Shown here one piece after another: positions 14,531 through 19,371 of a DNA stretch of 64,000 bases (within the stretch, counting starts at the first letter, position 1; each line of letters opens with the position of its first letter). This DNA is from Escherichia coli (GTDB lineage Bacteria > Pseudomonadota > Gammaproteobacteria > Enterobacterales > Enterobacteriaceae). The DNA is taken from assembly GCF_001677475.2 (NCBI RefSeq), contig NZ_CP015229.1, one strand, 5' to 3'. The notes beneath the pieces were generated by a model, which ran no database searches, had not been told where the DNA came from, and saw only the letters and a list, made by a program, of their open reading frames with translations. The position numbers and the translations under genes were made by a program.

Positions 14531-15238
14531 ATGCAATCTACTATTAAATCGTTGCCCGCTATTTCGCTTAGCAATATTTACAAGTGTTATGGCGCTGGGG
14601 CAGGAAAGGTTGATGCGCTTAAAAGCATTAATCTTGATATCAATAAAGGCGAATTTCTCGCACTGTGTGGGCCGTCAGGCAGTGGTAAAAGTACTCTGTT
14701 GAATATTCTCTCGGGTATTGATAAACCGACCAGCGGAACGGTGATATTTTTAAATAAATTACTGAACCAACTGCCGGAAGAGCAGTTAGCTGTGATTCGT
14801 GGAAAACATCTGGGTTTTATTTTTCAGTTTTTTAATCTTATGCCGGTATTAAATGTTTTCGATAACGTTTATTTCCCACTGGTGCTTAATGGCCAGTTCA
14901 GTAAAAAAGAAGCCACTGAACGGACGCTGCATTATCTCGATAGCGTCGGATTAAGCGGTTTTGGCGATCGCAAACCTGGGCAATTATCGGGCGGTCAACA
15001 ACAGCGTGTCGCCATCGCCAGGGCACTGGCCCACGAACCGATGGTGGTCATTGCCGATGAACCAACGGGAAATTTAGACCTGGCAACCGGCGAGGCTATT
15101 TTGGACCTGCTGTTGACGATTAATCAGCAGACCGGCACCACATTTGTTATTTCCACGCACTCCAGCGAATTAAAAGCGCGGGCACGGCGAGTGGTTGAAA
15201 TTCAGGATGGAGTATTGATTCATGACTCAGATGCATAA
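14531..15238 (+). CDS. ABC transporter ATP-binding protein (LolD/MacB-like)
   Basis: Walker A GPSGSGKST, signature LSGGQQQRVAIARAL, Walker B VVIADEPTGNLD; start chosen after upstream stop. Confidence 0.85.
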   Translation: MQSTIKSLPAISLSNIYKCYGAGAGKVDALKSINLDINKGEFLALCGPSGSGKSTLLNILSGIDKPTSGTVIFLNKLLNQLPEEQLAVIRGKHLGFIFQFFNLMPVLNVFDNVYFPLVLNGQFSKKEATERTLHYLDSVGLSGFGDRKPGQLSGGQQQRVAIARALAHEPMVVIADEPTGNLDLATGEAILDLLLTINQQTGTTFVISTHSSELKARARRVVEIQDGVLIHDSDA

Positions 15239-15878
15239 AGGATTTTTGTTCATCGGCGTCTTTTTGTATGCGGCATTTTTGGCCCCGAAGATTTACGCGG
15301 CAACTCCCGACGCCGTTAACCAGGTTCTGCAACAAGGGCTTCCGGCGCAGCCTGCCGCGCTGGCGACGCTGACCGAAGCGTTAAAGAAAGAGTATGAAGC
15401 CAGGCACAATGTGGTGGCGCTGGTTTTTTACGCCTATGGCTTACTGCGTCAGGCGGACGGTTATGCGGCAACAAACGATTTTATCCATGCCTCAGAATAC
15501 GCAAAAAGCGGCTTTTTCTGGCTGGATGAAGCGGTGGATTTGCAGGAGAAAAATCAACGCGTACGTTATTTACGTGCCCGCGTAGATGCCTATTTACCCG
15601 CAGATTCAGGGCGTTGCGTGGTGACAGTCCAAGACACCGAGCACATGCTGGCTGACCCGGCGATATGGGCGACAACGATTCGCGACCATATTCTGGCGAT
15701 GCGTTATCGTGCATTACGTCACTGCAAGGACACCACCCGCGCGAATGCGTTGTTGGCGCAAATTAAAGGGCAAAACGCCGCGCTTGCGCAGTCGCTGACG
15801 CAGGATTTTAATGTTGTACCAGAATGGGATAGTGAAGAGTTAACCCAGGTACTGCTGCCGCTGATGAAAGGTGAGTAA
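15222..15878 (+). CDS. Secreted/periplasmic hypothetical protein
   Basis: 218-aa ORF with N-terminal signal peptide (FLFIGVFLYAAFLAPKIYAA); overlaps ABC ATPase end by 17 bp and abuts the permease start. Confidence 0.55.
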   Translation: MTQMHKGFLFIGVFLYAAFLAPKIYAATPDAVNQVLQQGLPAQPAALATLTEALKKEYEARHNVVALVFYAYGLLRQADGYAATNDFIHASEYAKSGFFWLDEAVDLQEKNQRVRYLRARVDAYLPADSGRCVVTVQDTEHMLADPAIWATTIRDHILAMRYRALRHCKDTTRANALLAQIKGQNAALAQSLTQDFNVVPEWDSEELTQVLLPLMKGE

Positions 15879-17197: not shown

Positions 17198-17986
17198 ATG
17201 AATATGGCTTTTTACGGCAAGTGGTTTGCTTGCCTGTGGCTCGCTACGTCGTGCGTTCAGGCGGCGAGCACAGATAATAAGGCGCTGGAGATAATTCGTC
17301 GCGCTGACGAAATTCGTTCGCCGAATAAACCGTTTCGTTACACGCTGACGGTAACGGAATATAAAGCGGGCGCAACCCAGCCAGAGAATAAACAGATCCT
17401 CGATATTTCCATGCGTTTTATGAAACCGCAGGGTAATGAAAAAGCGGATGCACGCTCGCTGGTGCGTTTTATTTATCCGCCGCGAGACAAAGGAAAAATC
17501 ATGCTTTCCGACTGGTACGATTTATGGTTTTACACGCCGGAATTGCGACGTCCGATGCCTATTTCACGGCAACAAAGATTAATTGGGCAAATCTCTAATG
17601 GCGATGTCATTGTCACTAACTTTGAATATGCCTATGACTCGACCCTGGTGGGGGAATTCTCTTGTGCTGAAAAGCAGTGTTACAAGCTCGCGCTGGTGCG
17701 TAAATCGGCGGATATCACCTGGCCGAAGGTTATCTATTACGTTGAAAAAGACGGTGATAATCGCCCGTGGAAGGCGGCCTATTATTCGCAGGATGACCAG
17801 TTAATAAAAGAAGTGTTGTATCAGGATTTCCAGCCTGTGTTGGGGAAAACGCGACCCATGAAAATCACCGTTACCGATGTCCGTCACGGCAATAACTATT
17901 CAGTGATGGAGTACAGCGATGTTCGTCTGGAATCGCTGCCGGAGTTTCATTTCACCAAAGAATATATTCAGCGAGGTGCGAAATGA
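17198..17986 (+). CDS. LolA-like periplasmic lipid/lipoprotein carrier family protein (outer-membrane lipoprotein-sorting-like)
   Basis: 262 aa with signal peptide; family assignment by eye from overall resemblance and genomic context with FtsX/ABC genes. Confidence 0.5.
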   Translation: MNMAFYGKWFACLWLATSCVQAASTDNKALEIIRRADEIRSPNKPFRYTLTVTEYKAGATQPENKQILDISMRFMKPQGNEKADARSLVRFIYPPRDKGKIMLSDWYDLWFYTPELRRPMPISRQQRLIGQISNGDVIVTNFEYAYDSTLVGEFSCAEKQCYKLALVRKSADITWPKVIYYVEKDGDNRPWKAAYYSQDDQLIKEVLYQDFQPVLGKTRPMKITVTDVRHGNNYSVMEYSDVRLESLPEFHFTKEYIQRGAK

Positions 17987-19371
17987 AACGTGCGCTGAAG
18001 ATCTCTTCGTTGCTGTGTGTTGTGCTGCCGTTGACGGTACAGGCGGATTGCCTGTCAGGTGACGAGGTGGCACAAAACAGCGATGTGACGCTTTACGAGC
18101 AGGTGTCTTATGTCAATAAACAGGCTTCGGCCTGGCAGATTGCAGGCAAAAATCCCTACACACGTCACAACGGTTATCAGGAGGCGGGGATTGGCATCAA
18201 TAGTGGTTGTTCAATAATCGACAATACGCTGGACCTTAAGCTCAATCTGTATGGAATAAACGAATATGCGCTTAAACCCGCAGGGAAATTCGAAACGGAT
18301 GATAGCCGCACGCGTGCGTTAATTAACCGCCTCAGTCTGGTCTATAGCGCCTCGGACAGCGTTCAATTTGAAGCAGGCAAATTTGCCGCGCCGTCAGGAA
18401 TGTTCTTTTTGCGTTCGCCTTCTGATTTGCAAACGCATTATTACACCGGATTCCAGTCGACGCGTTTGCACGATCCCAAAATGACATCGGCGTATCAGGC
18501 GTCATCGTGGGGAGCAAAAATGAGCGTGGATACACGCGATTATGCGTTTTCAGCGAGCGTCATACCGAAGTTAGCCACCATCGACAAACGCTATGTGACG
18601 TCTGGCAACTGGTCTGCTAATCAGCAGGGAAACAGCGACGAAGCCTATCTGCTGAGCTACAGCGATCATCGCTTTGGTGAGCACACGCCGACAGTCAATG
18701 TGCGGCTCGGACCCTCGCCGTCACTCGCGCTGTCTGACAGTTATCACTACACCCCGCAGCTTACGCTGAATGTCGACGCAGCCTACCACCGCTCCCAGCA
18801 ATGGCGGCATCTTTCCCACCGTGAGACGGCGCAGGTCGAGGAATATCAGTTTCCGGATTCGCTCTATGAAACGAAAGACGAAAGCGGCGTGGAGCTGGCG
18901 CTGGGTGGGCAGTACACCAGCGATAATTTCAGCGTGTTTGGCGTTGAGTATTACTTTCAGAGTGAGGGTTATTCGCGCGCTGAACAGCGTCAGCAGCGCG
19001 AGTTAATTGACTTCCTCAATACCACAACCGGCTATGCGCCACTGGATCAGGCATTTGATTCTTACAAATACCTGATGGCTTCAGAAATCAGCAATACCGC
19101 CAATCAGGGGATGCTGCAGGGTAAGCACTATCTGAACGCCTGGGCCAGTCTGCCGCTGGCGGGAGAGTCGACGCTGCAGCCTTCGCTGGTGGTCAATCTC
19201 ATTGATGGCAGCACGTTGCTGGGCCTGCATTATTCCACGCCGCTCAGCGCTATCAGTAACCAGCTTGAAGCCTATGCCGGTGGCTATAGCGCGCTGGGAA
19301 GTCGGTATTCTGAATTTGCGCTTTTTGGCGACACGTTAGGCCTTTATTTGGGCTTTAAATACTATCTATAA
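17983..19371 (+). CDS. Putative outer-membrane protein (signal peptide, aromatic-rich C-terminus)
   Basis: 462-aa ORF; ATGA overlap with upstream gene; signal peptide LLCVVLPLTVQA; ends LGFKYYL. Confidence 0.5.
   Translation: MKRALKISSLLCVVLPLTVQADCLSGDEVAQNSDVTLYEQVSYVNKQASAWQIAGKNPYTRHNGYQEAGIGINSGCSIIDNTLDLKLNLYGINEYALKPAGKFETDDSRTRALINRLSLVYSASDSVQFEAGKFAAPSGMFFLRSPSDLQTHYYTGFQSTRLHDPKMTSAYQASSWGAKMSVDTRDYAFSASVIPKLATIDKRYVTSGNWSANQQGNSDEAYLLSYSDHRFGEHTPTVNVRLGPSPSLALSDSYHYTPQLTLNVDAAYHRSQQWRHLSHRETAQVEEYQFPDSLYETKDESGVELALGGQYTSDNFSVFGVEYYFQSEGYSRAEQRQQRELIDFLNTTTGYAPLDQAFDSYKYLMASEISNTANQGMLQGKHYLNAWASLPLAGESTLQPSLVVNLIDGSTLLGLHYSTPLSAISNQLEAYAGGYSALGSRYSEFALFGDTLGLYLGFKYYL

Follow-up and report, generated by a model that had tools for sequence, protein, structure and literature searches.

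Five consecutive genes at positions 14531-19371 of the window, the whole 64,000-nucleotide stretch of Escherichia coli DNA analyzed here, probably provide a dedicated export route across the cell envelope for the hydrophobic (fatty-acid/polyketide-like) product made by the gene cluster in which they lie. The route would follow the principle of the Lol system without being the Lol system. The five genes and their proposed roles are as follows.

14531-15238, + strand: ATP-binding cassette (ABC) ATPase, the nucleotide-binding subunit, type VII (MacB/Lol/FtsE-like), from motifs, NCBIfam and PDB matches
15222-15878, + strand: h218, a 218-residue exported protein and candidate periplasmic accessory of the ABC system, from its signal-like peptide and fixed position
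15879-17189, + strand: MacB/LolCE-type permease with an FtsX domain and a periplasmic core domain, from Pfam FtsX and MacB_PCD
17198-17986, + strand: 262-residue periplasmic LolA-superfamily protein and proposed lipid carrier, from Pfam PF17131, 3BUU and an AlphaFold2 (AF2) model
17983-19371, + strand: 462-residue predicted 18-strand outer-membrane β-barrel, the proposed outer-membrane end of the route, from its signal-like peptide and predicted fold

The five genes lie close together, at spacings of -17 to +10 nucleotides (nt). An earlier note on this DNA had described four of them (ATPase, permease, LolA-like protein and putative barrel) as encoded together; all four open reading frames (ORFs) lie within these coordinates on the + strand, and their order is kept in 26 loci. 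The note had overlooked the fifth gene, h218, within the same interval, as well as the inner-membrane protein YcdU encoded downstream. The same coding sequences (CDSs) are called by the Prokaryotic Genome Annotation Pipeline (PGAP) in E. coli genomes, and their public names are generic ('ABC transporter permease', 'outer membrane lipoprotein-sorting protein', 'hypothetical protein'). We document here the identities, folds and predicted compartments of the parts together with their co-inheritance with the biosynthetic genes.

The Walker and signature motifs ascribed to the ATPase by the earlier note are all located in its ORF (Walker A GPSGSGKS, 14669-14692; signature LSGGQ, 14984-14998; Walker B VVIADEP, 15044-15064), and an H-loop (TH, 15155-15160) is present too. 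The protein qualifies as a separate nucleotide-binding domain (NBD) of the type VII ABC systems, whose hallmarks are Walker A, Q-loop, LSGGQ, Walker B-Glu and H-loop. Its best NCBIfam match is LolD at 228.3 bits, below the family cut-off of 307.75, followed by YbbA, DarD, MacB (203 bits), FtsE and DevA (187 bits); in the PDB the sequences closest to it are MJ0796 and LolD (~1e-53 to 1e-58). It shares 42% identity with LolD of E. coli K-12, and the housekeeping lolCDE genes of E. coli occupy a separate chromosomal site. The permease, previously described as FtsX-type, indeed contains a Pfam FtsX domain (residues 302-429, E 9e-17) and in addition a MacB_PCD domain (residues 44-268, E 8e-9), giving the type VII layout of a large periplasmic domain between the first and second transmembrane (TM) segments and a C-terminal FtsX domain. 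Against the NCBIfam lolCE model it scores 90.3 bits, below the cut-off of 362.45; the closest solved sequences are LolE (1e-13), LolF, YtrF, LolC, FtsX and MacB, with identities of 23% to LolE and 21-29% to LolC.

By family membership the ATPase and permease are a type VII (MacB/LolCDE/FtsEX-type) ABC system. Systems of this type are not known to transfer substrates across the inner membrane; ATP-driven movement of the periplasmic domain extracts or expels them from the periplasmic side. Since there is a single permease gene, the permease probably acts as a homodimer, as in LolDF or MacB. Its hydrophobic segments are compatible with four TM helices and an additional N-terminal hydrophobic stretch. 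All permease orthologues share this N-terminal extension, which places ~20-25 hydrophobic residues before a conserved cytoplasmic motif D-x-KFAFLNLFRHKRRSFST (window 15879-15960, residues 1-27) and suggests a fifth TM helix; to our knowledge such a helix is not present in LolC, LolE or MacB.

The gene for h218 shares 17 nt with the end of the ATPase gene, including its stop codon, and ends directly before the permease gene begins (15878/15879). Wherever an examined locus shows the ATPase and permease genes, the h218 gene is found between them, the rearranged loci L030 and L032 included. The protein has an N-terminal hydrophobic signal-like peptide and conserved motifs (GFFYLDEA, RYLRARxDA, GRC and a second near-invariant Cys). 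No relative was found in Pfam (searched with the single sequence and with 14 members), NCBIfam or the PDB (sequence and profile), and no enzyme domain is recognizable in those scans. A faint precomputed TPR_16 match on one distant homologue was not reproduced, the best TPR_12 match being E 0.1 in 1 of 14 members. On the strength of its position and predicted export, h218 is a candidate periplasmic accessory of the ABC system.

The invariable placement of h218 between the two ABC genes, translationally coupled to both, bears on a different reading, in which the system would be a regulator of the FtsEX kind: movements of the ATPase and permease would activate a periplasmic partner (h218 or the LolA-like protein) that modifies a lipid or the envelope, and the barrel would be a mere channel for precursor or product. 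Type VII systems do include non-transporting members such as FtsEX, and FtsX is among the sequence matches of the permease, but at 3e-5 compared with 1e-13 to 1e-12 for LolE and LolF, and the permease carries a full MacB_PCD domain. The lack of a recognizable enzyme domain in h218, and a co-inherited LolA-fold carrier and barrel that are better explained by transport, make a regulatory role improbable in our view.

The proposed carrier is the 262-residue protein. It matches Pfam PF17131 (LolA_like, renamed TP_0789-like in newer Pfam releases) with E 1.9e-35 over model positions 2-184 of 184 (183 covered), and PF17131 is present in all of its orthologues. Its PDB sequence matches are 3BUU ('LolA superfamily protein NE2245', E 2.6e-34) and LolA3 (9tp6, E 7e-4). 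The AF2 model, built from a 30-sequence alignment, has a pLDDT of 77.5 and consists of an N-terminal helix, 11 strands and C-terminal helices. In Foldseek 3BUU is again the best match (E 1e-19, TM-scores 0.62/0.71), followed by LolA3 (9tp6), DUF1329 (4z48) and 3bk5. LolA, LolB, LprG, RseB and MucB match with lower TM-scores, and a match probability of 1.0 extends to LolA, LolB and LprG. The open antiparallel β-barrel with helices seen in solved PF17131 members is thus reproduced in the model, with low confidence at residues 100-139. Membership of the LolA superfamily does not extend to orthology with canonical LolA: there is no NCBIfam match, the sole Pfam match is PF17131, and the TM-scores to LolA structures are 0.26-0.33.

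The N-terminal Cys of the E. coli protein is not conserved among orthologues, so that the protein is predicted to be soluble in the periplasm with a signal of the signal-peptidase-I type rather than lipid-anchored; its assignment as a LolB-like lipoprotein was rejected on this ground. Fold and signal peptide together lead us to propose that it is a lipid carrier. Two further cysteines (Cys156 and Cys161) are almost invariant. Conservation is highest in the stretch DLWFYTPELRRPxPxSRQQRLxGQISNGDVIVTNFEYAY (residues ~105-146, window 17510-17635), which is also conserved in Nitrosomonas NE2245; over the same residues the AF2 model has its lowest confidence (pLDDT ~40-57), and they may form a mobile lid or docking loop. 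Among relatives, LolA3 of P. gingivalis is a periplasmic paralogue with a signal-peptidase I signal that does not pair with LolB (PMC13103446), and deletion of LolA3 in F. johnsoniae gave no phenotype (PMC11885536).

The 462-residue protein has an N-terminal signal-like peptide, an aromatic content of 12% and the C-terminus ...GFKYYL. The earlier note had remarked on a signal peptide and an aromatic-rich C-terminus, and the putative barrel that it proposed is borne out by structure prediction. The model is a closed antiparallel barrel of 18 strands with alternating lipid-facing residues and an aromatic-rich last strand, interrupted by a ~40-residue helical insert (332-374) between strands 13 and 14. 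The best structural matches include the uptake channels OccAB1, OpdQ, chitoporin and maltoporin. AlgE-like exporters and Occ-like uptake channels both match, so that the fold is compatible both with a barrel that inserts the lipid and with one that passes it to the surface or medium. No Pfam match appears even at E <= 10, nor is there an NCBIfam match or a PDB sequence match with the family profile, and the protein belongs to none of Alginate_exp, OprD, DUF3570 or other named families. The UniProt label 'DUF3570 domain-containing protein' on the E. coli orthologue (AFDB A0A8S7E9W9) was not reproduced by the Pfam scan at E <= 10. We therefore describe it as a predicted 18-strand outer-membrane β-barrel of no named family. 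A conserved Cys23 led us to consider a lipoprotein, an assignment rejected on finding that the residue is preceded by VQA-D, which is not a lipobox. The two points on which the earlier note had staked its proposal have thus both come out in favor of it: the 262-residue protein does have a LolA-like match and fold, and the 462-residue protein is predicted to be a membrane barrel rather than soluble.

A profile search of 1.84 billion representative proteins returned 55 matches to the barrel family. The four distant full-length members examined all lie beside LolA_like and FabD-like genes, and in the two contigs that are long enough (L030 and L032) ABC, h218-like, FtsX and KS-KS genes (KS, ketosynthase) are also present, joined in L032 by a GcvT-like gene.

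The three exported proteins (h218, the LolA-like protein and the barrel) all have signal-like N-termini and conserved Cys pairs, which suits the export reading. Another possibility is that the genes form a specialized Lol paralogue with a protein cargo, sorting a particular lipoprotein or helping to assemble the 462-residue barrel. No protein of the module has a conserved lipobox, the cluster encodes no LolB-like lipoprotein, and E. coli keeps its lolCDE genes elsewhere on the chromosome. While LolD, LolCE and the LolA superfamily are the named families to which the module comes closest, and RefSeq calls the 262-residue protein an 'outer membrane lipoprotein-sorting protein', the scores fall far under the Lol equivalog cut-offs, and we regard a protein cargo as very improbable.

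A common purpose is supported by the conservation of the locus as a whole, which includes the flanking features listed below.

6516-14520, + strand: biosynthetic part, encoding AcpS, a ketoreductase (KR), a FabZ-like dehydratase (DH), an acyl carrier protein (ACP), a GcvT-like protein, a KS-KS fusion, a KS-like protein and h317, from NCBIfam and PGAP annotation, with the order kept in 26 loci
19382-20326, + strand: FabD-like malonyl-CoA:ACP transacylase, from NCBIfam fabD and its conserved position
20323-21309, + strand: YcdU, a polytopic inner-membrane protein encoded by the last cluster gene, from hydrophobic segments and synteny

Between the KS-like gene and ycdU, all neighboring genes either overlap or stand no more than 10 nt apart. 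Gene order was traced by tblastn, as far as the contig or flank reaches, in 26 loci from other organisms (Enterobacter, Kosakonia, Klebsiella, Leclercia, Mixta, Izhakiella, Rahnella, Serratia, Silvania, Buttiauxella, Tenebrionibacter, two Acinetobacter and one Neisseria sp.). The order is identical throughout: KR-DH-ACP-GcvT-KSKS-KS-h317-ABC-h218-permease-LolA-like-barrel-FabD-YcdU. The recurrence of the same genes in the same order in other genera argues that their adjacency is not due to chance. The FabD-like gene follows the barrel gene in 25 of the 26 loci, which are all those that reach that far, so the export genes are embedded between biosynthetic genes; the encoded protein scores 178.5 bits against the NCBIfam fabD model, below the cut-off of 260.9. 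Sequence identity decreases from the cytoplasmic and membrane parts to the exposed parts (KS-KS 72-86%, permease 67-84%, ATPase 65-81%, LolA-like protein 63-77%, barrel 45-64%, h218 43-58%).

In L032, the most rearranged of the distant clusters, the ATPase-h218-permease trio remains contiguous, and the LolA-like and barrel genes stand apart from each other and from the ABC genes. Parts that stay together in one cluster despite a shuffled order are co-inherited and more than adjacent, and such joint inheritance across rearranged loci is good support for the view that the five envelope genes serve whatever the biosynthetic genes make. The separation in L032 could also be taken to divide the five genes into two unrelated functions, an efflux pump for self-protection against a toxic intermediate or product, and an uptake pair of LolA-like protein and barrel importing a hydrophobic precursor in the manner of FadL or the Occ channels. 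The presence of OccAB1, OpdQ, chitoporin and maltoporin among the structural matches of the barrel would suit an importer. That the five genes travel together, and that no substrate-activating ligase was found among the cluster products, makes such a division unlikely. Two smaller observations concern the distant loci. A DUF1571 protein encoded after the LolA-like gene in L032 (13909-14691) was considered as a second LolA-like protein and rejected (hhalign probability 0.3). In Mixta mediterraneensis (L028, ~8700-10000) ~1.3 kb separate the permease gene from a LolA-like match that begins at residue 77, which suggests that the carrier gene was inserted into or disrupted.

The best-supported reading of the locus is therefore a dedicated, Lol-like but non-orthologous export route, which we infer from family membership and synteny. 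In such a route the product, made on the ACP of the cluster, would become membrane-associated at the outer face of the inner membrane, possibly by way of YcdU. The permease homodimer and ATPase dimer would then, as expected from their family, use mechanotransmission to lift the product out of the inner membrane on its periplasmic side, with h218 as a fixed periplasmic partner. The soluble LolA-superfamily protein, to judge from its fold and signal peptide, would shield the lipid and ferry it across the periplasm. Finally the 18-strand barrel, a role proposed from its fold and invariant adjacency, would take up the lipid at the outer membrane and either insert it or pass it to the surface or medium. 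The cargo, direction, contacts and destination in this scheme are what we infer for the system as a whole. The suggestion of the earlier note that the cluster product is trafficked to the outer membrane is thus supported as an interpretation; the linkage of the module to the lipid genes is backed by invariant synteny across genera and by a barrel family restricted to such clusters.

YcdU deserves mention as a candidate for the membrane step. It has several hydrophobic segments, belongs to no Pfam or NCBIfam family, and is encoded by a gene that shares 4 nt with the FabD-like gene. Its full-length identity to the product of the same-position gene of Acinetobacter equi is 40%. Of the 26 loci, 25 contain it; in the remaining one (L014) the contig ends shortly behind the barrel gene. 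YcdU may act as a flippase or transferase responsible for attachment or flipping upstream of the exporter.

Several points weigh against a dedicated export route. The cluster contains no recognizable flippase, and h218 has no assigned role. The cavity of the carrier cannot be assessed, because its most conserved stretch (~105-146) is the least confident in the model. The closest characterized LolA_like relative, LolA3 of P. gingivalis, has no assigned function and does not pair with LolB (PMC13103446). Barrels of the 18-strand Occ/maltoporin type are mostly uptake channels, and the fold alone gives no direction. Lastly, a literature search, with many subscription papers outside its reach, found no paper characterizing these genes; the mentions it returned are generic ('fatty-acid synthesis genes', and an aryl-polyene (APE)-like call by antiSMASH) and give neither a product nor data on transport.

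A bolder form of the proposal, which we put forward only tentatively and hold to be rather unlikely as a whole, is that the locus represents a new trans-envelope lipid pathway of Enterobacteria and Acinetobacter, in which a type VII extractor with a new periplasmic subunit would hand a non-protein lipid to a LolA-fold carrier and from there to a family-less 18-strand barrel, for placement in or beyond the outer membrane. If true, strains of O157:H7, Enterobacter, Klebsiella and Acinetobacter that carry the cluster would display a so-far undetected surface lipid, and the PF17131 (LolA3/TP_0789-like) family would gain its first cargo and partners. How Gram-negative bacteria deliver hydrophobic molecules other than lipopolysaccharide, lipoproteins and phospholipids to their surface is largely unexplained. 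The locus offers a compact and genetically tractable E. coli case, in which a putative extractor, carrier and outer-membrane end-point are co-inherited with biosynthetic genes. It lies on an island typical of O157:H7 (O-island 47, OI-47), and the cluster is found also in Enterobacter, Klebsiella, Kosakonia and Acinetobacter. Its study would give a first functional context to PF17131/LolA3-type proteins, to the unnamed barrel family and to the K-12 orphans ymdE and ycdU.

These two orphans are the remains of the cluster in K-12. In MG1655, homology to the window sets in precisely where IS3D ends, at window position 19983 inside the FabD-like gene, and continues at 99.1% identity through ycdU (window 19983-21309; K-12 locus L004 6504-7830). 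In K-12, therefore, the pseudogene ymdE and the orphan ycdU form the stump that an insertion sequence has left of the 3' end of the cluster. The start of homology at the IS3D end indicates that K-12 lost the cluster through an IS3-associated truncation. This origin of ymdE explains the 'longer YmdE of 945 bp' reported in other phylogroups (PMC4951805). K-12, lacking all but the stump, is a natural clean host for reconstitution.

Of 5,426 complete E. coli genomes, 389 carry the stretch 14400-19400, at 95-99% identity. In the O157:H7 genome used for comparison, that of Sakai, its counterpart is ECs_1284-ECs_1298. The cluster is part of S-loop 71/OI-47, which has been described merely as containing 'fatty-acid synthesis genes' beside the loc6 fimbriae and the otpAB two-partner secretion genes (PMC8565820; bioRxiv 10.1101/2020.04.13.038984). 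Such a pair lies immediately upstream of the lipid cluster in the window (980-6500) and encodes a TpsA of 1270 residues with a filamentous-haemagglutinin N-terminal domain and a TpsB of 539 residues; otpAB is the O157:H7 name of these genes (bioRxiv 10.1101/2020.04.13.038984). Downstream of the five genes the window continues with ycdU, a tRNA-Ser gene (serX, 21503-21590), ghrA, ycdXYZ and the csg curli genes. In Sakai the 86-kb element SpLE1 follows ycdU, starting where the window has the tRNA-Ser gene (Sakai locus L034 from 35599). The window passes from serX directly to ghrA with no SpLE1 between them, and is thus not of the Sakai type of O157:H7.

The biosynthetic core (8550-14520) is itself unusual, combining a GcvT-like aminomethyltransferase, an 852-residue KS-KS fusion, a third, divergent KS-like protein and the 317-residue h317, for which there is no NCBIfam match. 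Among the KS matches of the core is AmcF, a type II polyketide synthase (PKS)-like enzyme of cispentacin (244 bits). A scan for promoters and terminators inside the cluster gave no excess over shuffled sequences.

Among known systems, LolCDE-LolA-LolB resembles the module in pairing a type VII ABC extractor with a LolA-fold carrier that is soluble in the periplasm. The module is a paralogue of the Lol system rather than a member, scoring 228.3 against the cut-off of 307.75 for LolD and 90.3 against 362.45 for lolCE. Whereas Lol uses both LolC and LolE, the module has one permease gene; its carrier belongs to PF17131 and not to canonical LolA; and h218 and the extra N-terminal hydrophobic segment of the permease are additions. 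The outer-membrane partner of Lol is the lipoprotein LolB, whereas that of the module is the predicted 18-strand barrel, and the three exported proteins contain no conserved lipobox Cys that would mark an acceptor of the LolB type. The cargo likewise differs, being lipoprotein for Lol and presumably lipid for the module.

At the level of single proteins, NE2245 (3BUU), LolA3 (9tp6) and DUF1329 (4z48) are the closest relatives of the carrier by sequence and fold. None of the three has an assigned function, cargo or partner, whereas the context of the module offers candidate partners (the ABC pump and the barrel) and a candidate cargo. Relative to the 18-strand monomeric barrels AlgE, Occ/OprD and chitoporin, the module barrel shows 7-12% identity and no Pfam match at E <= 10, and differs in its helical insert (332-374) and in forming a tiny family confined to this cluster type.

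The ABC architecture, with a MacB_PCD and FtsX permease and a MacB/DevA-like ATPase, is that of MacAB-TolC and DevBCA-TolC. DevBCA-TolC/HgdD exports heterocyst glycolipids, an earlier case in which a MacB-type pump serves an envelope lipid of polyketide origin. In place of the adaptor and duct of those tripartite exporters, the module would use a soluble carrier to bridge the periplasm. Neither an HlyD-type membrane-fusion adaptor nor a TolC-like duct was found among the NCBIfam-scanned cluster products (all except the annotated CDSs 6898-7659, the KR, and 14531-15238, the ATPase, taken as listed ORFs), in the h218 scans or in the island annotation.

The comparison with aryl-polyene clusters, drawn by the earlier note, holds for the idea of a LolA-like carrier and fails for the parts. 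In concept, aryl-polyene and flexirubin clusters are the closest precedents, being likewise type II fatty-acid synthase (FAS)/PKS-like lipid clusters with their own LolA-superfamily protein, for which outer-membrane export is proposed and not demonstrated. Aryl-polyene clusters encode the resistance-nodulation-division (RND) transporter ApeM, a COG4648 protein, the LolA-like ApeL and the LolB-like lipoprotein ApeN (DUF3261) (bioRxiv 10.1101/2020.12.19.423268), and for flexirubin the role of F. johnsoniae LolA2/LolB2 is still merely proposed (PMC11885536). These proposals are a precedent for the carrier idea. The present cluster has instead an ABC pump, h218 and a β-barrel, and no RND/MMPL transporter, DUF3261 LolB-like lipoprotein or COG4648 protein was found among its products. 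The genuine APE cluster of O157:H7 lies elsewhere (ECs_4324-4341), and antiSMASH flags an APE-like gene in the OI-47 island (PMC9205054). The principle of a Lol-like carrier route for a lipid cluster has therefore already been hypothesized for other clusters, whereas the composition found here, a type VII ABC system with h218, a PF17131 carrier and an unnamed 18-strand barrel, appears to be undescribed.

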